20,000 nucleotides of DNA from IMG/VR virus record IMGVR_UViG_3300031673_000024; one strand, 5' to 3'. This DNA is from an uncultured virus (IMG/VR IMGVR_UViG_3300031673_000024) (Duplodnaviria > Heunggongvirae > Uroviricota > Caudoviricetes). Positions 1,786-19,376 of this stretch are shown here, one piece after another. Under the pieces are notes generated by a model that saw only the letters and a program-made list of their open reading frames with translations, did no database searches and was not told where the DNA came from. A program made the translations under genes and the position numbers. Within the stretch, counting starts at the first letter, position 1; the number at the start of each line of letters is the position of its first letter.

Positions 1786-2001
1786 TCAGTGTGGCTTGGC
1801 GATGTTGTCGCGGGCGCTGTTCTTGACGTTCTGCACCATCGAGGCCGCAGCCACAAGACCATGCGCGATCAACACGATCGAGGTGAGAAACACCTTGTTC
1901 GCCATCGCCATCATGCGGTAACTCGTAGGGCATCCCTGCCGTCGTGCGCTTGGTACGCCTCTAAGATGGGATGTCTCTGCATGACCATGTTCGTCACTCA
2001 C
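1786..2001 (-). CDS. Small hypothetical protein with one hydrophobic segment (possible holin-like/lysis accessory)
   Basis: 71 aa. Fills the gap between the amidase (GTGAGTGA start/stop overlap) and the 2H gene. Hydrophobic run VFLTSIVLIAHGLVAAASMV. The start could be a later ATG. Confidence 0.45.
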   Translation of the reverse strand: MSDEHGHAETSHLRGVPSARRQGCPTSYRMMAMANKVFLTSIVLIAHGLVAAASMVQNVKNSARDNIAKPH

Positions 2002-2818
2002 TAGGCTTGATAACGCGCTCGATCATCGACATCTGCTCGTCGTAATCGTAGTGCCACTCTGGGTTCTCTTCCGCCTCGGCGTTATCACCTCGCGAGTCAC
2101 CAAGCGAGGCAATCTCATCGTCATCATCATCAGGGTCATCGGCGTCAGCCAACGCTGGAGGGATCATCTCCTCCGTACCGAAGACCTCGTTCAGCACGTA
2201 ATCGTGCGGCCAGAGAGGACCCGGGTCGCTCTTCCGGTGAGGAGACACGTCGGAGTGGAAGCAGATATCCTTTGCCTGGATGATTGGGTACGAATCGACG
2301 ATTCGCTTGAGAACCTCGATGTTAGCCGCTACCAACTTGTCGCTGTAGGGCTCCCAGTAGCGCATGACGCCGAAATGGTCTGCTGCTCGCTCCGGCTTCG
2401 GGCCACTGTACTTTCTACCAGGGACGAAACCCGCCGTCGTCTTGGCAGGTAGGTAGAAGTCGTTACCTGACTGTAGCAGCCAGCCAACGTTGCAGTTCTC
2501 GATGCCGATCGTGAACTGGTTGACGTTCGTCGGTTGGGAAATGCCACGCGGCCAGAACCCCTTCCCCTGCTTCTCCCCCGCGTGGAACGCCCTGTCCGCG
2601 AAGCTCACCATCTGTACGACGTGGCCGTTTCGGAAGATGAATACGTGCGCAGAGTTCTTTGACTCCGGTGTACCCATCCACTTGACGAGCCCTCCCTCCG
2701 AGGCTGATGCGGTGTAGTGCTGCACCACGCCAGATACGGGCCACTCCGCCTTGCGTCCTGCCCAGAAACTCTTGCTGGGGATGACCTCGGCACCAGGGAT
2801 GTCAGGGAGGAAGCTCAT
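1994..2818 (-). CDS. N-acetylmuramoyl-L-alanine amidase (Amidase_2, AmpD/T7-lysozyme-like), probable endolysin
   Basis: 274 aa. Motifs VVQHYTA, SAHVFI.RNG.VVQMV, AFHAG, NQFTIGIEN and ICFHSDVSPHRKSDPG provide the Zn ligands H, H, D and the catalytic E. Acidic C-terminal tail. GGAG RBS. Confidence 0.92.
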   Translation of the reverse strand: MSFLPDIPGAEVIPSKSFWAGRKAEWPVSGVVQHYTASASEGGLVKWMGTPESKNSAHVFIFRNGHVVQMVSFADRAFHAGEKQGKGFWPRGISQPTNVNQFTIGIENCNVGWLLQSGNDFYLPAKTTAGFVPGRKYSGPKPERAADHFGVMRYWEPYSDKLVAANIEVLKRIVDSYPIIQAKDICFHSDVSPHRKSDPGPLWPHDYVLNEVFGTEEMIPPALADADDPDDDDDEIASLGDSRGDNAEAEENPEWHYDYDEQMSMIERVIKPSE

Positions 2819-2821
2819 GGA

Positions 2822-3094
2822 CTACTCCGGGTAGTAGCGAACGACGGCTGCGGACAGGGTGCTGCCATCACCATGTATAAAGACATGCGCTTCCATGTGG
2901 TCCTCGTGCTCCGAAACGGCGCCGATACCGAACTCTCCCGCAGGCACATACGTCGGAGTGAACCGCCCATGCTTATCGAGTAGACGAACCAGTGGGTAGC
3001 GGACCTGCTGAAGATGGAACCGCGCGTGACCGTGGTTCGCGCCCGAGGCGGCGAAGGTATCCGCAAGAGCGTCGATCAATTGTGTAACGTTCAC
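2822..3094 (-). CDS. Hypothetical protein (90 aa)
   Basis: GTG start overlaps the TGA of the upstream 57-aa ORF (GTGA). Its stop lies 3 nt before the amidase ATG, consistent with operon packing. Confidence 0.65.
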   Translation of the reverse strand: MNVTQLIDALADTFAASGANHGHARFHLQQVRYPLVRLLDKHGRFTPTYVPAGEFGIGAVSEHEDHMEAHVFIHGDGSTLSAAVVRYYPE

Positions 3095-3264
3095 TTCATC
3101 TCGTCTTCCGAGGCAGACATAACGTAGCCATCTACGACCACGTACAAGTCCTCGAAGGTGGGTAGTCTACTGACAGTGTGGGATTGAGGAGCGTTAAGCT
3201 CCTCACGATCGAGGTGAGAGGGATGTGCCTGGGTAAAGAGGTCGTCTTCGTGGTTGGCCGGCAT
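3091..3264 (-). CDS. Small acidic hypothetical protein (57 aa, MPANHEDDLFTQAHPSHLDREELNAPQSHTVSRLPTFEDLYVVVDGYVMSASEDEMK)
   Basis: Translated by hand; below the ORF-track cutoff. ATG lies 3 nt after the GGDEF stop, with AAGGG upstream. Its TGA overlaps the next GTG, so it exactly fills the gap. Confidence 0.65.
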   Translation of the reverse strand: MPANHEDDLFTQAHPSHLDREELNAPQSHTVSRLPTFEDLYVVVDGYVMSASEDEMK

Positions 3265-3267
3265 AAG

Positions 3268-4101
3268 TCAGCCCTTCTTTTGTGAGTACATCCGCTTATC
3301 TGCCTGTAAGAGCAGGGTGTCGATGTCGTTACCGTCTTCGGGGAAGGTGGCTACGCCACACGAAACACCCACCGAAACATCAACATCTCCTACCGCAATT
3401 GGCCTCCCAATGACAGCGCGAATACGCGACGCTATGACCTCCGCCTCGCTTACGCTTCGGAGCATGGACAAGAAGACCAAGAACTCATCGCCCGCGAACC
3501 TGGAGACAGTATCTGTCTGGCGAACAGTCTCCCTAAGGCGTAGCGCTACTGATCGCAGAACGGCATCACCCACGGCGTGCCCATAAGTGTCATTGATGGG
3601 CTTAAAACTGTCGAGGTCCAGGAAGAGGATAGCAGCGCCACGTTGCTCACGTCCTGCTTGGGCCAGTCCTTGCTGGACTCGATCCATGAACAGGTGCCTG
3701 TTGGGCAACCCCGTAACCGCGTCGTAGTGAGCCCTATGCGCTAGCTCTGCTTCTCTCGTCTTGTCCTCGGTAACGTCTCGTCCGATGAGGATCGCTTCAT
3801 TGTCGCCTACGCATGGCGTAGCGCTCAAGGACAGCCATAGCGAATCACCACCATTCGTCTGAAAGTGCCGGGTGCCACGAAGGGCAGCCCCCGTACTGTC
3901 GGCACGCACGGCTACAGCTTCCTCAGGATGCATGAGGTCGAGAAGAGAACCTCCCTCAATCTTGTCGTTCCCAAATAGGTAACGGAACATCGGGTTAACC
4001 TTGCGCAGCAGGTAGCCACGCAGGTCGACGATAGCCATAGGGTCTGCCGCCAGCTCAAATAGGAGACCGAGCCTATCTTCCTGTCCAATAATTATCGGCA
4101 C
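3268..4101 (-). CDS. PAS-GGDEF diguanylate cyclase
   Basis: 277 aa. PAS-like N-terminus (DPMAIVDLRG...VNPMF...LMHPEE...WLSLSATP...GRDVTEDK). GGDEF hallmarks: AHYDAVTGLPNR, FLDLDSFKPINDTYGHAVGDAVL, I-site RQTD, A-site RFAGDEF, VSCGVATFP and ADKRMY. Confidence 0.95.
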   Translation of the reverse strand: MPIIIGQEDRLGLLFELAADPMAIVDLRGYLLRKVNPMFRYLFGNDKIEGGSLLDLMHPEEAVAVRADSTGAALRGTRHFQTNGGDSLWLSLSATPCVGDNEAILIGRDVTEDKTREAELAHRAHYDAVTGLPNRHLFMDRVQQGLAQAGREQRGAAILFLDLDSFKPINDTYGHAVGDAVLRSVALRLRETVRQTDTVSRFAGDEFLVFLSMLRSVSEAEVIASRIRAVIGRPIAVGDVDVSVGVSCGVATFPEDGNDIDTLLLQADKRMYSQKKG

Positions 4102-4150
4102 AAGTAGGACCCCACTACCATCAGCGTGCCGTTAATGGGGAATACTATAC

Positions 4151-4183
4151 GGAGAAAGCCGGGAGTACGACCCGGCTTTCTCC
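4151..4183 (-). terminator. 13-bp perfect hairpin downstream of nrdJ, probable intrinsic terminator
   Basis: GGAGAAAGCCGGG-agtacga-CCCGGCTTTCTCC, 21 nt after the nrdJ stop. The U-tract is short. Confidence 0.6.
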
Positions 4184-4204
4184 TTACTTACACTGAGCTG
4201 TAGG

Positions 4205-6862
4205 TCAGCCGCAGCCGGTTGTGTCCCCGCAGTTGTCGCACTTGTGGCACGAACCTGCACGAACAGTCATGTGACCACAAGCAAGGCATGGAGGACCAGA
4301 AACAACCCGCCGACCCTCGCGCACTGGGACACTGGGTTTGGCAACAGAGGCGGAAGGTGATCCGGGCTCTGCGGTGGTCCTCATCTCGACGATCCTCGCA
4401 ATGTAGTCGAGCAGCGACGTAGCCGAGGGAACATCCGGGTTGCCCGTGAACCCAGCAGGCTCGAACGAGGTGTGCTTGAACTTCTCAGTGAGGGTGTCCA
4501 CAGGGATACCCCACTGAATCGCAATCGAGAACAGCGTCGCCCAGCCGTCGAGGAGACCGTTGAGAGTCGATCCCTGCTTGGAGACGTTCACGAACACTTC
4601 ACCAAGCTGTCCGTCCGGGTAGTACCCGAGCGTCAGGTAGCCGTTATGCCCGTTGAGTCCGAACTTGTGTACGGATGCCATACGGTCGTTAGGCATCGGA
4701 CGGCGGTGAAGCTCCCCAGCCGCCACAGAACGCGGAGCGGTCTCCGCGTCGACGTTGAGAGGCTGGCTCTCCTTGCAGCCGTCACGGTAGATGGCAATCG
4801 CCTTCAAGCCCATGCGCCACGCTTCCATGTACATCTGCTTGACGTCCTCCACCGTGGACTCGCTGGGCATGTTCACGGTCTTGCTGATAGCGCCAGACAA
4901 GAAAGGCTGACAGGCAGCCATCATGTTCACATGACCCATAGCCGAGATCGACCTATCACCGCGTTTAGGCTTGAGGGAGCAGTCGAAAACCGCCAGGTCC
5001 TTGTCCTTGATATGCGGAGAACCCTCGATGGTGTCGTTCGCTTCGATGTACGCGATGATGTCAGCCACATTCTCGGCGGAGTAGCCGATGTTACGCAAGG
5101 CCATACCCACGCCCTGGTTGACGATCTTCATGCTCCCGCCGCCGACGAGCTTCTTGTACTTGACGAGGGCGAGGTCAGGCTCGATGCCGGTTGTGTCGCA
5201 ATCCATCATGAACGAGATCGTGCCTGTCGGAGCGAGAACACTGGCCTGCGCGTTGCGCATTCCAGTGCTATTGGCGTACGTGATGGCAGCCTCCCACTCA
5301 TCATGGGCCTCGGTGAAGATGTCCGAGAACATGGAACGGCTGGCGTGGTCGTCGTTTGCTGCCAGATGCATCTTCAGCACTTCCGTCATCGGCTCCCGAT
5401 TGCGGAAGAAGCCCTCGAAAGCCCCGACCTTCTCGGCGATCTGACCACTCATCCGGTAAGAGGTAGCAGACATGAGCGAGGTGATCGATCCAGCTAGGTC
5501 ACGACCCTTGGTGCTGTTGTAGGGCAGACCGAGAGACATGAGCAGGGCTCCCAGGTTGGCGAAGCCGATACCCAATGTGCGGTACTTCTTCGCCTCTCTG
5601 GTGATGTTCTCCGTGGGGAAGCCCGAGAAGGAGATGAGCGTCTCCTGCGCGAGAATAGTAAACTCCACACCAGCCTTGAAGGCGTCGACGTCGAACGCCC
5701 CATCATCCTTACGGAACTTCATCAAGTTAAGAGAAGCAAGGTTACATGCCGAGTTGTCGAGGAACATGAACTCCGAACATGGGTTCGATGCCACGATCTG
5801 ACCGTCCGCCGAGCACGTGTGCCACTCGTTCACGGTATCGTGAAACTGGAGGCCAGGGTCGCCACATGCCCAAGCAGCCTCAGCAATCTTGCCGAAAAGA
5901 TCGCGTGCATTGACCATACGGGCTACGCCACCATCAGGCACACGCGACTTGAGGCCCCAAGAGGACCCCTCCTCGACCGCCTTCATAAAGGCGTCGCTGA
6001 TACGAACCGAGTTGTTAGCGTTCTGCCAAGGAGCGAGGTCGTAGGCACCGCCTTCCTTGTTGAACTCGGGAGAGAAGCCAGCGGCGATGAGAGCCTGGAC
6101 AACCTTCTCGGCCTCCACCTTCGTCATCACGAACGCTTCAATGTCTGGGTGGTCGTCGTTCATGACGAGCATCTTGGCTGCGCGTCGCGTCTTGCCTCCC
6201 GACTTGATCGCAGCGGCGCTGCGGTCCCATCCCAAGGCAAACGACAGCGGCCCGGAGGCGTAGCCGCCGCCCGACAGTCGGGCGTTCTTCTCGCGGATGC
6301 GGGAGATGTTCACCCCTGCCCCGGAACCCTTGCGGAAGACGTAGCCTTCTTCGGTGGCGAGGTTGAGGATCGACTCCATTGTGTCGTCGACACTCAGGAT
6401 GAAGCAGGCGCTCGACTGCGGGTTCTCTTCTGCCCCGACGTTGAACCAGACAGGCGAGTTGAACGCCATCATCTGGTTGAGGCACATGAAGCGAAGCTCG
6501 TCTTCGAGAATCTTCCCAGCATCATCGGACAGATACCGGTTCTCTACGGCTGCGGTGGCGATGGTGACGACGACGCGGTCGATCAGTTGACGGACAGAGG
6601 ACTCGCGCTTCTCCCCGTGGCCACGGAAATACTTGGAGGCGACGATGTTCGTAGCGTTCTGCGACCAGAACTTGGGTACCTCGACACCGTACTGCTCGAA
6701 GATGATCTCCCCGTCGAGGTCCTTCATGACGACGTCGCGCATCTCCCATTCGACCTCGTCGTAGGGTGATGTCGTCGTAGTGAAGTAGCGCTTGAGGGGG
6801 AGCCGCTTGGCTTTGACAGAAGTAGAAGAAGTGGGAACAGTAGCCGTAGCGGCGTCCAACAT
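4205..6862 (-). CDS. nrdJ: Adenosylcobalamin (B12)-dependent class II ribonucleotide reductase
   Basis: 885 aa. Motifs WSQNATNIVASKYF, FNSPVWFN, PQSSACFI, KSGGKTRRAAKM, active-site ASNPCSEF, ACNLASLNL, APTGTIS and GAISKTVNMP. C-terminal TSCPD-type domain and Zn ribbon ending CLACG...CHKCDNCGDTTGCG. GAGGG RBS. Confidence 0.96.
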   Translation of the reverse strand: MLDAATATVPTSSTSVKAKRLPLKRYFTTTTSPYDEVEWEMRDVVMKDLDGEIIFEQYGVEVPKFWSQNATNIVASKYFRGHGEKRESSVRQLIDRVVVTIATAAVENRYLSDDAGKILEDELRFMCLNQMMAFNSPVWFNVGAEENPQSSACFILSVDDTMESILNLATEEGYVFRKGSGAGVNISRIREKNARLSGGGYASGPLSFALGWDRSAAAIKSGGKTRRAAKMLVMNDDHPDIEAFVMTKVEAEKVVQALIAAGFSPEFNKEGGAYDLAPWQNANNSVRISDAFMKAVEEGSSWGLKSRVPDGGVARMVNARDLFGKIAEAAWACGDPGLQFHDTVNEWHTCSADGQIVASNPCSEFMFLDNSACNLASLNLMKFRKDDGAFDVDAFKAGVEFTILAQETLISFSGFPTENITREAKKYRTLGIGFANLGALLMSLGLPYNSTKGRDLAGSITSLMSATSYRMSGQIAEKVGAFEGFFRNREPMTEVLKMHLAANDDHASRSMFSDIFTEAHDEWEAAITYANSTGMRNAQASVLAPTGTISFMMDCDTTGIEPDLALVKYKKLVGGGSMKIVNQGVGMALRNIGYSAENVADIIAYIEANDTIEGSPHIKDKDLAVFDCSLKPKRGDRSISAMGHVNMMAACQPFLSGAISKTVNMPSESTVEDVKQMYMEAWRMGLKAIAIYRDGCKESQPLNVDAETAPRSVAAGELHRRPMPNDRMASVHKFGLNGHNGYLTLGYYPDGQLGEVFVNVSKQGSTLNGLLDGWATLFSIAIQWGIPVDTLTEKFKHTSFEPAGFTGNPDVPSATSLLDYIARIVEMRTTAEPGSPSASVAKPSVPVREGRRVVSGPPCLACGHMTVRAGSCHKCDNCGDTTGCG

Positions 6863-6959
6863 AGAAGCACCCTCGTGTTTGGTCGTGATGTGGTGGGGCG
6901 GCGGACGCCGCGCGTAGAGACAGAGTGATCGTCGACGAGAAGAGAGGCCCGAGGAGACC

Positions 6960-7916
6960 TTACGCCTTCTTTTGGGTCTTCTTCTTAGCCTTAGCCTTCG
7001 CTGGCTTACTCTTGAATCTTCTCTTCTTCGGAGCCGACAATTCGTCTTCGGGCGGAAGCTCGCTTATGAACACACAGTTGCGGTGCGGAGGAAAGATGGC
7101 GGTGAAGTACAGGAAGTCGCCGCTGTAGAGCTTGAGGTTGAACTCGTTGACTGCCTGACCCACGCGGTAGTCAACGTCCTCGTTCTCACACAGCTTTCGG
7201 TAGGCACGGGCCATCGTCAGCCCAACATCAGAGCCCGCAAGGTCCAGCGCGGTGCTCCATATGTCCTTTGCCTCGTCAGGCAGCTTCTTGGTCACGGCGC
7301 TCGTGACCTTGAGCCTCGTCGTAATCCGGAATAGAAACCTGATGTACGCATCAATCACGATAGAGAAGGGGAGGGGGCTCTCGGTTTCGTCTAGGATGCG
7401 CTTGACCTCGGCCATCATCCGCTGCGCTCCGGACACAGGAGCGACCTCTGGGATGGGCATCCTGCTGGTCGACTCCAATACCGACGGGCGTCTCTTTCCT
7501 AGAGCGGCGGTGAGCTTTGCAGCTAGAGGGAAAGGGCTTGCGGGACTGGGCAGCGCGACGGTCTCGTTCATCTCTGCCGGTGTTAGATGCCTGGGGGTAG
7601 GGATGCCATCCTCCACCTCAACATCAACGACCTCGAACCCCTCCGTGCTCCTCTTGAGCGTGTGGAGGTTTTGCAAGTCGTCAAATACGAAGATCGAGTC
7701 GAACCTGTCGTAGTCCTTCGCTACACGGTGCAGGGAAGACGCCCCCAGGAGGAGCAGCACGGACTTGCGCCCGTCTCCCTCCACTTCACTCATGAACTTC
7801 ATGTACTGAGCTAGGACACGCGGGGTATCTGCGTACACAACCGGACGCCAACGAACAGGGTCGACCATCGACATCACAGCGATCGGGTTCGTGAAGGAAA
7901 AACCGACAAATGCCAT
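6960..7916 (-). CDS. Hypothetical protein with Lys-rich C-terminal tail
   Basis: 318 aa, co-oriented, 8 nt after the upstream stop, GAGG RBS. Ends KKRRFKSKPAKAKAKKKTQKKA. No family recognised. Confidence 0.75.
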   Translation of the reverse strand: MAFVGFSFTNPIAVMSMVDPVRWRPVVYADTPRVLAQYMKFMSEVEGDGRKSVLLLLGASSLHRVAKDYDRFDSIFVFDDLQNLHTLKRSTEGFEVVDVEVEDGIPTPRHLTPAEMNETVALPSPASPFPLAAKLTAALGKRRPSVLESTSRMPIPEVAPVSGAQRMMAEVKRILDETESPLPFSIVIDAYIRFLFRITTRLKVTSAVTKKLPDEAKDIWSTALDLAGSDVGLTMARAYRKLCENEDVDYRVGQAVNEFNLKLYSGDFLYFTAIFPPHRNCVFISELPPEDELSAPKKRRFKSKPAKAKAKKKTQKKA

Positions 7917-10432: not shown

Positions 10433-11545
10433 CTAGACGCGGGTGCCGATGGCGACGGCGCGGTCCTGAACGTGGAGAGACTCCAAGCCCATGAGGTAGA
10501 AGCCGCGGCGCGGCGCACCCAATGGATAATGGTTGATCTCTGTCGACTGGATCTCGCGACGAACACCACGCTGGCCGAGGGCGATCGGGGTGCCGAGAGC
10601 GAAGACCTCACCCGGCTGCAACACCTGGAGGGTGTCGTAGCGGAAGCCGTCGGTGATCAGGTTCATGTCGAGCAGGGCGCCGAGCTTGCCCTCCATGATC
10701 AACTGGTACTTGTGAACGGGCTCCCACCACGTCGTGAACGACGGGTCGGCGATCATGTCGTCCCAGATGTCGAAGGAGAACAGGAGGTGAGCGGCGGGGA
10801 TGCCGTTCGACAGGACCTGCGTGCGGAGCGCCGTGAGAACCTGCGGCGTGAACGTCGCGAAGCTCACCGGAGCGTTGAAGACACCAGCCGTGGCGAGGAG
10901 CAGGCTTCGCAGAATGCGATCCTGGCGAACCATGACCGCTTCGAGCGCGTCCTGGAACTTCTCGTCAAGGAACTCCGGGCCTGCCTGAGCAAGCTCGCGC
11001 TCCTCGATGAGCACCTGGCTCTGGAGGTAGTAGTCCTGGGGGTAGATGTACGCCTGCTCGACGATCTGTGCGATACCTTCGCCATCGTTGATGACTTGGA
11101 ACGCGGTCACGTCCTTGCGGCGCAGCTTGATGCGGTTGTCCACACCGTCGACGACGTCCTTGCGGGCGACGACCTGCGGTGTGAAGCCCTGACGGTTCAG
11201 GGTTTCCCACACATCCTCGGCGAACACTTCGCCCATGAGCTTCATGCGATCATCGCCAGAACCGAAGGCGCTGACGAGTTCCTCGTGACGCTCCTTCTTG
11301 GCGCTGAGCTTGGCGCGCTCATCGGTGAAGCCTGCGTCACTGCCGATCTGGCCGTTCTGAACCATCGCGTGGAGCGCGTTGATCTTCTGGGCGAGGTCTT
11401 TGGTGTCGTAGGCGTTGATCTCACCAGAGGCGTCGGTCATGCGACCACCCGCTGCCTGGATCTGACCGTTGCTCTTCTTTGCGAACGCGGGCATGTGCCC
11501 CATCACGGGCTCCCGCGTCGCCAAATGGAAGTCCTGTCGAAGCAT
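10433..11545 (-). CDS. Major capsid protein (HK97 fold, jumbo-phage type)
   Basis: 370 aa, strongly GC3-biased codons, strong AAGGAG RBS, followed by a terminator. Lies last in the portal-protease-scaffold series. Motifs GEINAYDTKDL, ETLNRQGF, EKFQDALEAVMVRQDR and EGKLGALLDMNLITDGFR recall capsid proteins of PaBG/Lu11/RSL1/Y3-like jumbo myoviruses (from recall, unverified). Confidence 0.85.
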   Translation of the reverse strand: MLRQDFHLATREPVMGHMPAFAKKSNGQIQAAGGRMTDASGEINAYDTKDLAQKINALHAMVQNGQIGSDAGFTDERAKLSAKKERHEELVSAFGSGDDRMKLMGEVFAEDVWETLNRQGFTPQVVARKDVVDGVDNRIKLRRKDVTAFQVINDGEGIAQIVEQAYIYPQDYYLQSQVLIEERELAQAGPEFLDEKFQDALEAVMVRQDRILRSLLLATAGVFNAPVSFATFTPQVLTALRTQVLSNGIPAAHLLFSFDIWDDMIADPSFTTWWEPVHKYQLIMEGKLGALLDMNLITDGFRYDTLQVLQPGEVFALGTPIALGQRGVRREIQSTEINHYPLGAPRRGFYLMGLESLHVQDRAVAIGTRV

Positions 11546-11963: not shown

Positions 11964-13412
11964 CTACTTCTTCGCCGGGGACTTCTTCTTCTTCGGTGCC
12001 CGCTTCTCCTTCATGGAGGCGAGGCGCCGGTCGTCGAGCTTGGCGAGGTCGGCAGGGTGCTTCATGCCGTACTTCTCCTTGTAAGCCTTGCGGCTCTGCG
12101 GAGACGGACGGTTCGACGTGAACCAGTACGAACCGAGGAACTTGCCCTTGGAGTCGTAGGTGTTGAAGTAGAACTTCTTGCGGACCTTCTTGCGTCCCTT
12201 GGGCGTGTTGACCGAGCCACGCATGCCCTTCTTGCTCTTCTTCATCTCGGTGCGGAAACGACGGCGCTTCCGATTGATCGTGGCCCGACGCTTCGCCTTG
12301 GCTCGCGCGGACTTGCTCATCTTCGGGCGCTTCTTCGCCGAGACCGTGCGGTTGTCCGTAACGAAGTCACGGCGCTCCTTCGGGCTCATGCTGGCGAGAA
12401 GCTCGCGAACCTGCGCAACCGAGAGGTACTCGGAAGCCTCAGCGTCCTCGATGTAGTCCTCAGGCATCTCCTCATCGTCGATACTCTCAGGAGCCATTTC
12501 GAGGGCGTCGGGGGCGTCGGTATCGACTTCTGGTTCGAGATCACTGGGTCCTTCGCTTCCGAAGTCCATCTCGACATCCGTCGCGATCAGTCGGCTCAGA
12601 CGCTTCTGAACGCGGGACAGGCGCGAGGAGATGCGGCGGCGAGCCGAACCTTCGAGCAGACCTTCCTTCTCCAGAGCAGCAAGTTCGTCTTCCGAGAGCG
12701 TCTCCATGTCGCCTTCGTCATCGTCGTCATCGTCGTCATCGCCCGAACCATCGACGTCGTCTCCGTCCTCGGAGTCGTCGTCCTCCTCGGAGTCGTCCTC
12801 TTCGGCAGATTCGTCTTCCTCGGAGTCGTCTTCCTCGTCAGCGGGCTCATCTTCCTCTTCCTCTTCCTCGGAGTCGTCATCTTCGGCAGATTCGTCTTCC
12901 TCGGAGTCGTCTTCCTCGGAGTCTTCCTCGGAGTCTTCCTCGTCAGCGGGCTCATCTTCCTCTTCCTCTTCCTCGGCGGCGGCACGCAAGGCCGCGGCTG
13001 CAAGGTCAAGGGACGAAAGAGCGAGTTCCTCATCGTCCATGTCGTCGTCGCCGAGCATGTCCATCGGCTCCATGTCGTCGTCGCCGAGCATGTCCATCGG
13101 CTCCATGTCGTCGTCGCCCATGTCGTCGTCGAGCATCATGTCCATCGGATCTTCGTCCAGCATGTCCATGTCGTCGTCGCCGAGCATGTCTTCCATGCCC
13201 TCTTCCATCATCTCCTCTTCGGGAGACTCCTCGGAATCGAGCATCATTTCGTCCTCTTCCATCGCCCGGATCTCCGACTTGATGTCGCGGAGTTCGGACA
13301 TGGCGGCGCGGATCTCCTTGCGCTTCGCCGGAGAGGCGGTCTTCATAGCCGCGCGAAGCCCGCTCATTGCCTCGCGGATCTTCCGGCTGGTCTGAGCCTG
13401 GATACGGTTCAT
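11964..13412 (-). CDS. Low-complexity charge-block protein (basic N-terminus, very acidic repeats, Lys/Arg-rich C-terminus), probable internal head/core protein
   Basis: 482 aa from ATG 13412 (MNRIQAQ..., AAGGAG RBS). The track's TTG start at 13493 falls inside a hairpin loop. Located between the decoration and capsid genes. Confidence 0.8.
   Translation of the reverse strand: MNRIQAQTSRKIREAMSGLRAAMKTASPAKRKEIRAAMSELRDIKSEIRAMEEDEMMLDSEESPEEEMMEEGMEDMLGDDDMDMLDEDPMDMMLDDDMGDDDMEPMDMLGDDDMEPMDMLGDDDMDDEELALSSLDLAAAALRAAAEEEEEEDEPADEEDSEEDSEEDDSEEDESAEDDDSEEEEEEDEPADEEDDSEEDESAEEDDSEEDDDSEDGDDVDGSGDDDDDDDDEGDMETLSEDELAALEKEGLLEGSARRRISSRLSRVQKRLSRLIATDVEMDFGSEGPSDLEPEVDTDAPDALEMAPESIDDEEMPEDYIEDAEASEYLSVAQVRELLASMSPKERRDFVTDNRTVSAKKRPKMSKSARAKAKRRATINRKRRRFRTEMKKSKKGMRGSVNTPKGRKKVRKKFYFNTYDSKGKFLGSYWFTSNRPSPQSRKAYKEKYGMKHPADLAKLDDRRLASMKEKRAPKKKKSPAKK
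12760..12976 (-). repeat. Composite coding repeats (EEEEEEDEPADEED x2, SEEDESAE x2, DSEE units)
   Basis: GTCTTCCTCGTCAGCGGGCTCATCTTCCTCTTCCTCTTCCTCGG occurs twice, with additional 12-15 bp TCTTCCTCGGAG units. Confidence 0.85.
13036..13118 (-). repeat. 33-bp tandem repeat, 2.5 copies (encodes DDDMEPMDMLG)
   Basis: TCCATGTCGTCGTCGCCGAGCATGTCCATCGGC at 13036-13068 and 13069-13101, partial at 13102-13118, with degenerate copies beyond. Confidence 0.9.
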
Positions 13413-13474
13413 TTCTTCTTGCTCCTTGAGAAAACTGCGGGTTTCGTGCTGTGAAAGGGGGGAGGGGGAAAGAC

Positions 13475-13513
13475 GAGTAAGGGTCTCCGGCAAAAAACCG
13501 GAGACCCTTACTC
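13475..13513 (-). terminator. 16-bp perfect hairpin after the decoration gene (weak terminator/attenuator or processing site)
   Basis: GAGTAAGGGTCTCCGG-caaaaaa-CCGGAGACCCTTACTC. On the minus strand it is followed by the pyrimidine run GTCTTTCCCCCTCCCCCCTTTC. Confidence 0.6.
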
Positions 13514-16556: not shown

Positions 16557-17378
16557 TTACTCCCCGAACGGCTTCTGCTGCGTCTGAAAGGCGCCATAGT
16601 TCGCCGGGTCACCTACCGAAGACGACTCGAAGAAGTGGTAGTCGTAGACCGCGTCGTACACGAGGCTTCCTTTGAGGACCTGCCCCTTGCCCATGAACTT
16701 GCCCTGGACACGCTGCTGCTGCGGTCCCTTCATGCAGTCACAGGCCGACGGATAGCTCGTATCCCAGCGATGCCCGCAGTTTGCACAGTCCATGGAAGCG
16801 GTCCACGCGCTCATGCTGTGGCCACGACGACGACCAGAAAGAACATCATCAGCAAGCTGACTGTCCTTCGTACGGTCGAACGCCTTGAGGATCATGGTGA
16901 ACCAGCGGCCATTCACCTGCTTCATCGAAGCGTCGAGGATGACACCCTTCGCCTTCGTGTTGTCATCATGCTGGTGCTCGTAAAACACCGGCTTACCCAC
17001 GAACGTGCGATACGCTTGAACACCGAACTTGGGAACCCAGTCAACCAACCGAGAGGTCAGGAAGCAGTCCATGTTACGGTTGGGCACATCGCCTTCAACG
17101 ATGGGCACCTCAGCGATGACGTAGTCTCGGATGTCCGCCGACAGGCAGTAGGCGTCAGCCGCAGCGGGGAGCCAGGACACGTCCACCACAGAGCTTCGGT
17201 CGAGGGCCGAGGCGCTTGCCATCAGCATCCGACCAGTCCCACGATCTAGGTCGTATCCCAGACGGAAAGACTCCTCGGTGTTGATCTGATCCGCGTAGGA
17301 ATGGAGGATGTGGGAGTCTTTGGGGTTCGCTGTAGCAGCCGACAGAGCAGAACCTTCGGGGATGATGAGAGAGGTCAT
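16557..17378 (-). CDS. Prohead maturation protease (HK97/assemblin-like serine protease fold) with Zn-finger insertion
   Basis: 273 aa directly after the portal. Motifs PNRNMDCF, FVGKPVFYEH (candidate catalytic His), KAKGVILDA, GHSMSA (candidate catalytic Ser), CANCG...CDC and FFESSSVGDPA. Confidence 0.8.
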   Translation of the reverse strand: MTSLIIPEGSALSAATANPKDSHILHSYADQINTEESFRLGYDLDRGTGRMLMASASALDRSSVVDVSWLPAAADAYCLSADIRDYVIAEVPIVEGDVPNRNMDCFLTSRLVDWVPKFGVQAYRTFVGKPVFYEHQHDDNTKAKGVILDASMKQVNGRWFTMILKAFDRTKDSQLADDVLSGRRRGHSMSAWTASMDCANCGHRWDTSYPSACDCMKGPQQQRVQGKFMGKGQVLKGSLVYDAVYDYHFFESSSVGDPANYGAFQTQQKPFGE

Positions 17379-17381
17379 AGG

Positions 17382-19376
17382 TCAGACTGCCTTCCCGGCT
17401 TTGTTCAGGGTATCGAAATCCCGATTTAGCCGTGCGCGGTCCACTGAGAGGTCTTCTCGTGGTGTCCCTGACAGTTTGGTATCCGTAGGGACATAGACGC
17501 GGGAAGCGTCCGCCTTGAAGGAAGCTGACTCCACCACACCCTCCGACAACTCCTTCGCCTTTTTCTTCTCCTTGTCGGTCAACTCATTGACATCGTACCC
17601 GTCCTCGTCTTCCGCGAAGTCGAGTTTCGACACGCCCTTCTGGAGCTTCTCGATCTCGGCAGAAAGCTCATCGGGCTCCATGTCGCCAGCGCCCTCTTGA
17701 AGAGTCATGATCTGCTGCTTCAACTGCTGGAACTTCATAGCCTCCAGGCGGAAGTCCAGGTCAGCAACCGCCGTCCGCATCCGGTCGGCTAGTTCGCCAC
17801 CACCAAGGGTACGGTTCCACTCGGCTGCCCCGACAGGCAAGCCCTTCTCTTCCATCTTGTCGAGAAGGTCGGCACGGGCCATATCCGCCGTGGAGTCAAG
17901 GCTCTTGTGGAAGATGAGCGTAGGAAGGATGAGTTCGTGGTCGTCGTCGTCGATGATGATCCGGTGAGCAAGCTCTGCGGGGGTGCGGCGCCGGAAGTTG
18001 TGGACGACAGCCAAAGCACGGAAGAACTTCTGGATGAGGAAGGTCTCCACCACGTACTTCCGGTGTGCCTTCAGGCGCTCCATGAAGATCGTGGGGGCCG
18101 TTGTCGTATCAATGTTCATATCCCCCATAAGGAGTGATTCAGAAACACCGAACATCTTGAGCTTGGCTTCCTGCAAGAAGCTCCACTCGTCCTGCCACTT
18201 CCACATCTCAGCGAGCGATCCACGGATCTGATTGAAGTCAACGTCGTAACGTGTGCCGATGGTTGACGACACGCTGTCTTCTTCGGCGGCGGTGTAAGCA
18301 GACACCAAAGCATCGATCTGCTCGGGGGTAGGCTCCCACTGCTCGGAGCCAACGCGAATCTGCGTAATGGGTCCGGCACGGCGGCGGTGCCCGGTCAACG
18401 TCGCGTTGATGAGGCTCTTCTCAAGGCCCCACAATGGGATGTTGCGTACGTAGAAGGAGGTACCGTAGATGTCGCTGAAGAACGACCGGCGAGGAAGGTA
18501 CGCCGTAGTCGTTGGATCGAGCGGGATCGGCTGGTTCTGGCCGAGAGCGTCGAGAAGCTCCTTCGGCATCCCCTTACGGGAGTCGACGTCACGCTCGTCC
18601 TGGCTTTTTACCCACGCCTGCATAGCAGGAGAAGGTACAAGGTCGAGCTTAGGCATGAAGCCAGTGCGTGGGATCTCACCGATGTTCACGTAGTCAGCGT
18701 CGTGGATGACCATGTCAGTCCAGATGCCCAACTCCGCGTTGAGGATAAGCTGGATGATGACGCGCCCGATGACTAGGTACTCCTTGGTGATGTCCTCCAA
18801 GTACCTGTCGACACGTACAGCATCCTTGGCCGCCCAATAGGTATCGATTATGGTTGGGTCCCGGATGCCGGCGATGTCGAAGTCTGACCAGCACATCTCC
18901 GCAATGGTCTCGACCACGGGGCCTTCGATGACCCCGCGGTTGAACATGATGCGGAACATGCGGTTCTGTGAACGCGGGTCCTGTGGGATCCAGTCTTCAG
19001 CGACCGTGCCTCGGCTGAGGTCGTCGTAGACAGGGTTGTACCGGTCGACCGTGGCCCCAGAGGAACCAAAGCCGCCGCTCCCGCCGAAGCCACCAAGACC
19101 ACCGCTCCCGCCGCTACTCCCACCACTACCAAAGGAGCCAACAGCAGAGACTGTATTTGCTTCTACTACAGTCTTATTCTTCTGATTGAGACGCTCGTGC
19201 ATCGTAGCTGCATGCACGTGCCCATCTTCGTCTTTCACAAATCCGCGACGGGACTTCAGGCCGCTTACAACACCGGCTCCGGCGTCGTTGTTGGCACTGT
19301 TTCCTTTACCGGTAGGACGGTTGACACTCTCAATGAGTGAAGAAACAACACGCTGGCGACGACCAATACGGAGCAT
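17382..19376 (-). CDS. Portal protein
   Basis: 664 aa, first gene of the head series. Portal-like features: ITKEYLVIGRV, YLPRR...DIYGTS, LEKSLINATL...RRAGPI, QIRVGSEQWEPTPEQIDAL, KLKMFGVSESLLMG and FMERLKAHRKYV. Low-complexity N- and C-terminal extensions. Confidence 0.8.
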   Translation of the reverse strand: MLRIGRRQRVVSSLIESVNRPTGKGNSANNDAGAGVVSGLKSRRGFVKDEDGHVHAATMHERLNQKNKTVVEANTVSAVGSFGSGGSSGGSGGLGGFGGSGGFGSSGATVDRYNPVYDDLSRGTVAEDWIPQDPRSQNRMFRIMFNRGVIEGPVVETIAEMCWSDFDIAGIRDPTIIDTYWAAKDAVRVDRYLEDITKEYLVIGRVIIQLILNAELGIWTDMVIHDADYVNIGEIPRTGFMPKLDLVPSPAMQAWVKSQDERDVDSRKGMPKELLDALGQNQPIPLDPTTTAYLPRRSFFSDIYGTSFYVRNIPLWGLEKSLINATLTGHRRRAGPITQIRVGSEQWEPTPEQIDALVSAYTAAEEDSVSSTIGTRYDVDFNQIRGSLAEMWKWQDEWSFLQEAKLKMFGVSESLLMGDMNIDTTTAPTIFMERLKAHRKYVVETFLIQKFFRALAVVHNFRRRTPAELAHRIIIDDDDHELILPTLIFHKSLDSTADMARADLLDKMEEKGLPVGAAEWNRTLGGGELADRMRTAVADLDFRLEAMKFQQLKQQIMTLQEGAGDMEPDELSAEIEKLQKGVSKLDFAEDEDGYDVNELTDKEKKKAKELSEGVVESASFKADASRVYVPTDTKLSGTPREDLSVDRARLNRDFDTLNKAGKAV

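Follow-up and report, generated by a model that had tools for sequence, protein, structure and literature searches.

A PAS-GGDEF gene between nrdJ and lysis genes of an uncultured soil phage is predicted to encode a diguanylate cyclase

The window analysed here, a stretch of 20,000 nucleotides from an uncultured virus of the Caudoviricetes (IMG/VR record IMGVR_UViG_3300031673_000024), carries all of its long genes on the minus strand. In the order of reading these are a portal gene (17382-19376; phrog_16240), a head maturation protease (16557-17378; phrog_18299), a 509-aa ORF lying between the upstream head genes and the capsid gene (11964-13493), the major head protein (10433-11545; phrog_2522, E 6.8e-40), several unassigned genes and nrdJ, a class II (B12) ribonucleotide reductase with a TSCPD tail (4205-6862; Ribonuc_red_lgC, E 5.9e-135). 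The PAS-GGDEF gene follows at 3268-4101, and after it, still on the minus strand, come a 57-aa acidic ORF (3091-3264), a 90-aa ORF (2822-3094), an Amidase_2 endolysin (1994-2818), a small ORF (1786-2001) and a 337-aa protein of the 2H/LigT phosphoesterase type (769-1782). Pfam and PHROG calls on both sides agree with the initial annotation, made from the letters of the window, which had described the gene as embedded among phage genes between nrdJ and the endolysin. The head protease also matched positions 68-208, in the N-terminal part, of phrog_2774, a PHROG of 1263 positions with no assigned function. The 509-aa ORF matched no Pfam or PHROG family; compared across relatives, it diverged far more than the genes around it, and identity, at 38-56%, was confined to short patches. 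A PADLOC search of the window gave no matches, and a tRNA search found none within it.

The 57-aa ORF starts 3 nt past the stop of the PAS-GGDEF gene and has its own stop overlapped by the 90-aa ORF, with the endolysin ATG standing 3 nt past the latter; this tight spacing suggests that the four genes belong to one transcription unit with the lysis genes. Neither of the two ORFs matched a family in Pfam or PADLOC. On its other side, the PAS-GGDEF gene is separated from nrdJ by a 13-bp GC-rich hairpin (4151-4183, minus strand) that lies just past the nrdJ stop, with a fold of -47.5 kcal/mol (z -3.2) and no T tail. A scan for consensus promoters and terminators yielded neither a sigma-70-like promoter nor a terminator call for this hairpin. 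Set apart from nrdJ by the hairpin and running head-to-tail with the small ORFs and the endolysin, the gene is probably co-expressed with this block, at a modest level. The small ORF after the endolysin, which was read by eye and has an uncertain start, contains one hydrophobic stretch and no Pfam family, and is possibly a holin-like protein. The 2H/LigT-type protein was recognized through its C-terminal half (2_5_RNA_ligase2, E 3e-13), gave no sequence match in the PDB or PADLOC, and is conserved in two related contigs, G001 (52%) and G002 (40%).

The first of these contigs, the 59.7-kb IMG/VR contig G001 (loci L001 and L161), was found to match 18 of the 19 queried window proteins in the same order, the capsid being 84%, NrdJ 65% and the endolysin 72% identical. 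It carries, between nrdJ and the endolysin, a 295-aa PAS-GGDEF gene that is 46% identical to that of the window. The one remaining protein, that of the 57-aa ORF, was also recovered there by pairwise BLASTP (33%, E 8e-7), starting 4 nt past the GGDEF stop, and the 90-aa ORF is conserved at 33% identity. A different hairpin, of 22 bp (z -5.4) and likewise without a T tail, occupies the equivalent place.

Assembly support was sought in sequencing runs. Run X1, possibly the source sample, yielded one 6.6-kb contig over 1900-7000 with zero differences, and X3, from a different soil sample, yielded a contig over 3965-4315 that crosses the nrdJ/GGDEF junction, also with zero differences. The junction at 3266/3267 was not bridged by 31 letters in X3, but was bridged by a 151-nt contig (3225-3375) from X5, a sediment metatranscriptome, in which a second 151-nt contig, likewise identical to the window, covers 3375-3525. 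X5 being an RNA library, these contigs are a weak hint that the gene is expressed, with DNA carry-over possible. Three soil metagenome runs contained 87-100% of the sampled words of 1900-7000; the small shares seen in runs X4-X8 were left out of any statement on habitat, and stretches lacking coverage in X4 and X5 carry no meaning. Synteny at the equivalent place in an independent phage contig, together with contigs from other samples that cross the junctions without differences, supports the earlier reading of the gene as phage-borne.

The PAS-GGDEF ORF is intact, a single open frame of 277 codons (P0001). Its GTG at 4101 is the first start codon past an in-frame TAA (4132-4134), and this start is supported by an N-terminal stretch, D-R-x-x-L-L-F, that follows it and is kept in close relatives; one gene caller chose Met22 instead, giving a 256-aa protein (P0125). 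Residues 20-112 (3766-4044, minus strand) form a PAS sensor domain, recognized by Pfam PAS_9 (PF13426; E 8.4e-7, 29.7 bits against a cut-off of 27) and TIGR00229 (35.9 bits against 22.9). Residues 124-276 (3274-3732, minus strand) form the GGDEF catalytic domain (Pfam E 4.7e-43, 147.2 bits against 23.8), and the NCBIfam model TIGR00254 (142.8 bits against 37.4) likewise places the protein in the GGDEF family (PF00990/TIGR00254). The translation contains the motif DLDSFKPINDTYGHAVGD, in which D162-L-D-S-F-K-P-I-N170-D-T-Y-G-H-A-V-G-D179 can be read, an I-site R194-Q-T-D197 (3511-3522, minus strand) and, five residues further on, the A-site motif A203-G-D-E-F207 (3481-3495, minus strand). Profile searches and translation therefore agree with the initial annotation on a complete GGDEF domain behind a PAS domain, with every motif that it had listed. 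This agreement is at the level of domains: no NCBIfam equivalog model reached its cut-off, implying that the protein is not orthologous to any named enzyme.

The catalytic and feedback sites, previously described as apparently intact, proved so in the translation and in an alignment of 53 homologues, save for the substitution of Gly by Ala at the first motif position. D162, K167, N170, D171, H175 and D179 are invariant in this alignment, as are R194, D197, G204, D205, E206 and F207, so that the acidic metal-binding residues (D162, D205, E206) and the guanine-reading residues (N170, D179) are all present. The same catalytic and I-site residues are retained in the subclade of relatives that share AGDEF (members 48-69% identical to P0003), and their persistence throughout makes a pseudo-enzyme in decay unlikely. 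Four of the five positions of the GG(D/E)EF signature are canonical. AGDEF itself was found in 12 of the 234 homologues of the tree set, whereas an RxxD was detected by pattern match in 213 of them. We take N170 and D179 to correspond to N335 and D344 of PleD. The protein stops two residues past K275, leaving the final five profile positions of Pfam unmatched, and presumably among these is an Arg that contacts phosphate in PleD; similarly short basic tails occur in 47 of 125 retrieved homologues, and we regard the short tail as a trait of the subfamily.

An AlphaFold2 model of the protein (mean pLDDT 94.2) shows the PAS domain as a five-strand sheet with flanking helices and, together with the Pfam domain calls, bears out the proposed architecture of a sensor joined to a cyclase. 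The modelled GGDEF domain superposes at about 1 Å on the active cyclases 4urg (tDGC of Thermotoga maritima, TM1788), 7a7e (YfiN/TpbB) and 5m3c (PA0575); solved GGDEF domains such as 4urg and 7a7e are 41-44% identical to it with an rmsd of 0.9-1.1 Å, the values for 4urg being 42% and 1.0 Å. The whole model matches RbdA (PA0861; 5xgd) and a LOV-activated cyclase (8c05), with which it has in common the two-domain layout and the linker helix. Unlike these solved PAS- or LOV-GGDEF proteins, the phage protein lacks an EAL domain and, as judged by eye, a flavin-binding LOV signature. A PDB sequence search with the PAS domain found no relative at E<0.1, and a homodimer prediction scored 0.35 against a mark of 0.42, which speaks neither for a dimer nor against one.

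Domains, residues and fold are together consistent with a PAS-gated, product-inhibited diguanylate cyclase that would raise c-di-GMP in the infected cell, the reading that we favour as reasonably probable. Weighing against it are the Ala at the first motif position, the shortened C-terminal tail, the poor codon fit and the gene's dispensability in the wider phage group. In this scheme the N-terminal helix, the PAS domain and the linker helix would together mediate dimerisation of the soluble cyclase, and an intracellular signal read by the PAS domain would set the geometry of the two GGDEF domains. The pair would then convert two GTP to c-di-GMP, with output limited by c-di-GMP bound at RQTD. 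Extra c-di-GMP may act on the host's own effectors, giving less motility, fewer pili and more matrix, and the infected cell could as a result stay among susceptible neighbours or be closed to further adsorption. The available parts of two papers describe a phage peptide, YIP, that likewise raises host c-di-GMP by activating the host enzyme YfiN (PMC8085984, PMC11461919), a precedent for phages benefiting from raised c-di-GMP. YIP, however, is a small peptide acting on a host enzyme, whereas the soil phage encodes the enzyme itself.

The protein might instead be a weak or dead GGDEF protein that binds c-di-GMP or GTP, either as a receptor or as a sponge soaking up host c-di-GMP through its RxxD. 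Phages do sequester cyclic nucleotides with sponge proteins, and both the Ala at the first motif position and the strict conservation of the I-site in the 53 homologues would suit such a role. The AGDEF domain of NbdA is termed degenerate in the accessible part of a preprint (bioRxiv 10.64898/2026.03.20.713172). Against this, the metal- and substrate-binding residues are all kept in the AGDEF subclade despite some 30-50% divergence, and the sister subclade, including the syntenic copy in G001, has a canonical GGDEF. The initial annotation's statement that AGDEF variants can be active also has a published precedent in VCA0965 of Vibrio cholerae, which in the available portion of its report made c-di-GMP in vivo and in vitro, and remained functional when the first motif residue was Gly, Met or His (PMC3974145). 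VCA0965, a bacterial chromosomal gene, has both AGDEF and an RxxD site in common with the phage protein. We consider a binding protein of this kind unlikely.

Of 8000 candidates scored in a protein search, 2372 were homologues at E<=0.001. Nine of them stood out: P0003-P0006, which are 49-71% identical to the query and all AGDEF, and P0007-P0011 at 41-45% (54% over 62% of the query for P0010), all GGDEF. The contigs that encode these nine include two of 317 kb and 132 kb. Phylogenies were built from sequences covering both domains (profile positions <=35 to >=270), matches to GGDEF only being dropped, which left 242 rows, or 234 after removal of identical ones. In the FastTree phylogeny of the 234 rows, the window's protein, P0003-P0011 and the G001 copy formed an 11-row clade (SH-like support 99), within which the five AGDEF members formed a subclade (support 99) that keeps AGDEF throughout. 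Both clades were recovered with SH-aLRT 99 by IQ-TREE (LG+C20, quick search) from 65 rows, comprising the 45 nearest and 20 random ones, with 10 long-branch rows left out. Members of the 11-row clade are 41-71% identical to the query and two of them have been shown to be phage-borne; one relative is labelled a Planctomycetota MAG at NCBI and lies on a 4.8-kb contig. The groups nearest to the clade, among them a copy carried by a complete 448-kb IMG/VR phage and another in an Undibacterium genome, have a branching order that lacks resolution. No bacterial genome copy placed in the tree fell inside the clade, the genome loci being those among the matches listed. Among the same matches, the best near-full-length bacterial genome match was 41% identical (80 kept genome loci), and a metagenome scan gave generic GGDEF homologues of at most 49% identity among the matches listed, which did not include P0003-P0011.

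Carriage of the gene was compared across related phages, comprising six IMG/VR contigs (G001-G004, related by capsid, and G005 and G006, related by endolysin) and five complete cultured relatives. According to CheckV, G005 and G006 are 99-100% complete and G001-G004 are fragments. A GGDEF domain was detected in one of the six contigs and in none of the five cultured relatives, which makes the PAS-GGDEF gene an accessory of a subclade and not a clade-wide trait. The possibility, raised with the initial annotation, that such genes are commonplace in the related phage clade did not hold in this set. With phage genes on both sides, the same locus occupied in a relative and the gene absent from other relatives, it has the properties of a phage accessory (moron or auxiliary) gene. 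In G002 (L162/L166) and G004 (L167), with capsids 79-81% identical to that of the window, a different ribonucleotide reductase, 23-27% identical to NrdJ, stands at the corresponding place, and the G002 endolysin is on the opposite strand; the block of nrdJ, GGDEF gene and small ORFs accordingly looks like a swapped cassette. The 57-aa and 90-aa ORFs (2822-3264 in the window; 10824-11284 in L001) were found only in the two GGDEF-bearing phages and not in G002 or G004.

Wider searches of phage sequences were also made. No match to the window turned up by megablast among 50,697 phage records, and IMG/VR scans with the single protein, the AGDEF-subclade alignment and P0008 gave no confirmed relative. 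A tblastn search of the protein against phages hit 130 records, all below 60% identity, which were set aside as evidence of carriage, many being unannotated or having whole-genome-shotgun-style accessions.

The composition of the gene sets it apart from its neighbours. Its GC3 of 0.601 is the lowest of the 19 window genes (0.638-0.838 in the others), and no other gene agrees less well with the codon usage pooled from the remaining 18. The opening codons had been noted as more A/T-ending than those of the capsid gene, and this was borne out over the first 30 codons (GC3 0.567 versus 0.833; 0.838 for the whole capsid gene). The G001 copy also has the lowest GC3 of its surroundings (0.716, against 0.74-0.93 for its neighbours). 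GC3 that is lowest in both phages yet tracks each genome (0.60 and 0.72) suggests long residence in phages. On compositional grounds the evidence points to an old resident with modest expression and not to a fresh import, and the poor codon fit may reflect low expression. The proposed acquisition of the gene from a host is, for these reasons, plausible as an old event only: a recent import is made less likely by the gene's own clade of 41-71% identity, by a best bacterial match of 41% among the matches listed and by a GC3 that tracks the phage genomes. The phylogeny that had been called for gave the protein a clade of its own, with support of 99 in two trees, and placed no bacterial genome copy, among the matches listed, within it.

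The lowest GC3, the worst codon fit and the absence of the gene from most relatives could also be taken to indicate a passenger from the host with no role for the phage. Yet the gene is intact and its locus is shared by two phages with 84% identity between their capsids and 46% between their GGDEF proteins, its composition tracks each phage genome, and its clade is without any bacterial genome copy placed in the tree (among the matches listed). A mere passenger therefore seems very improbable.

GGDEF enzymes with altered specificity exist, the Hypr GGDEF enzymes, and a cyclase making another product (cGAMP, c-di-AMP or a linear dinucleotide) might jam or decoy host cyclic-nucleotide immune signalling. 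Phage enzymes that break down cyclic-nucleotide immune signals are among the members of the 2H/LigT fold, and the 2H/LigT-type phosphoesterase gene 1.5 kb downstream could hint at cyclic-nucleotide traffic. The guanine-reading positions N170 and D179 are, however, canonical and invariant in the 53 homologues, and the PADLOC search gave no family match. In Hypr enzymes the second of these positions is occupied by Ser or Thr, but in the phage protein by Asp (D179), so that c-di-GMP would be favoured over cGAMP if the presumed PleD correspondence and this Hypr rule apply. Another product is in our view highly improbable.

An artefact, in which a host fragment was misassembled onto phage DNA or host DNA flanked a prophage, might be suspected from the many IMG/VR GGDEF matches at contig ends (only 16 of 80 kept loci have 10 kb or more between them and each contig end), but is effectively refuted by the phage genes flanking the PAS-GGDEF gene tightly on each side, the equivalent arrangement in the independent contig G001, the zero-difference contigs of X1 (6.6 kb, 1900-7000), X3 (3965-4315) and X5 (3225-3375), and the finding that none of 80 bacterial genome loci, among the matches listed, shares another window gene.

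The phage that carries this putative cyclase is probably a large one. Its capsid and portal proteins share about 26-31% identity with their counterparts in cultured phages of Burkholderia, Achromobacter, Erwinia, Dickeya, Pseudomonas putida, Xanthomonas and Vibrio, whose genomes measure 195-267 kb; for the capsid, the identity is about 30% to phages of 200-265 kb. A 72-kb contig encodes a protein with at least 90% identity to the query. These values suggest a large and possibly jumbo (>200 kb) phage, and CheckV extrapolations from the relatives disagree with one another, implying a genome of anywhere from about 57 to 206 kb.

The initial annotation had rated the novelty of a phage-borne PAS-GGDEF gene too highly. 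The query matches seven PHROG families, and in IMG/VR 127 of 187 pattern matches encode a relative. The complete IMG/VR phage G008 (447,761 bp, with direct terminal repeats) has two sensor cyclases, a triple-PAS-GGDEF protein of 548 aa and a GAF-GGDEF protein of 346 aa (L254, L255), and the 170-kb IMG/VR contig G007, with a capsid 29% identical to that of the window, has a PAS-GGDEF-EAL gene. In print, a diguanylate cyclase is mentioned for a Mu-like virus from the Cariaco Basin in the available part of PMC7785012, and a 'probable diguanylate cyclase DgcQ' is listed in the annotation table of phage G, as far as the text of PMC12484599 is accessible. GGDEF domains, often with PAS or GAF sensors, thus occur in other phage genomes too. 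These genes represent different protein lineages, the G008 copy lying outside the 11-row clade and that of G007 being a PAS-GGDEF-EAL gene, in contrast to the short stand-alone PAS-A/GGDEF protein of the clade, adjoining nrdJ and lysis genes. Our literature searches uncovered annotations and mentions in metagenome papers but no biochemical test of a GGDEF enzyme encoded by a phage, and supplementary files may list further viral GGDEF genes. The phrase 'phage-encoded diguanylate cyclase' was found only for the YIP peptide, which binds host YfiN, in the available text of PMC11461919. The protein is an ordinary member of the PAS-GGDEF kind in a less ordinary location, though one with company, and the novelty of the phage-borne gene is moderate.

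A bolder and improbable reading is that the 11-member PAS-A/GGDEF clade is phage-only and that c-di-GMP is the phage's own infection-stage messenger, acting on phage-encoded partners. If this were so, the PAS domain would sense the condition of the infected cell, and the signal would be received by partners for which the 57-aa and 90-aa ORFs, translationally coupled and directly before the endolysin, are candidates. Lysis would then be timed, or superinfection blocked, rather than the host being pushed towards biofilm.

Our understanding of the GGDEF enzyme family is unchanged by this gene. Phages are known to manipulate c-di-GMP via host enzymes, as with the YIP peptide in the portions of that literature available to us. 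The soil phage offers a short (277 aa), soluble candidate with a high-confidence model and, together with its syntenic relative, a natural AGDEF/GGDEF pair. It would therefore be well suited to asking whether the second-messenger signalling of hosts is directly rewired by large soil phages, and how far the first Gly of the GGDEF motif tolerates replacement.
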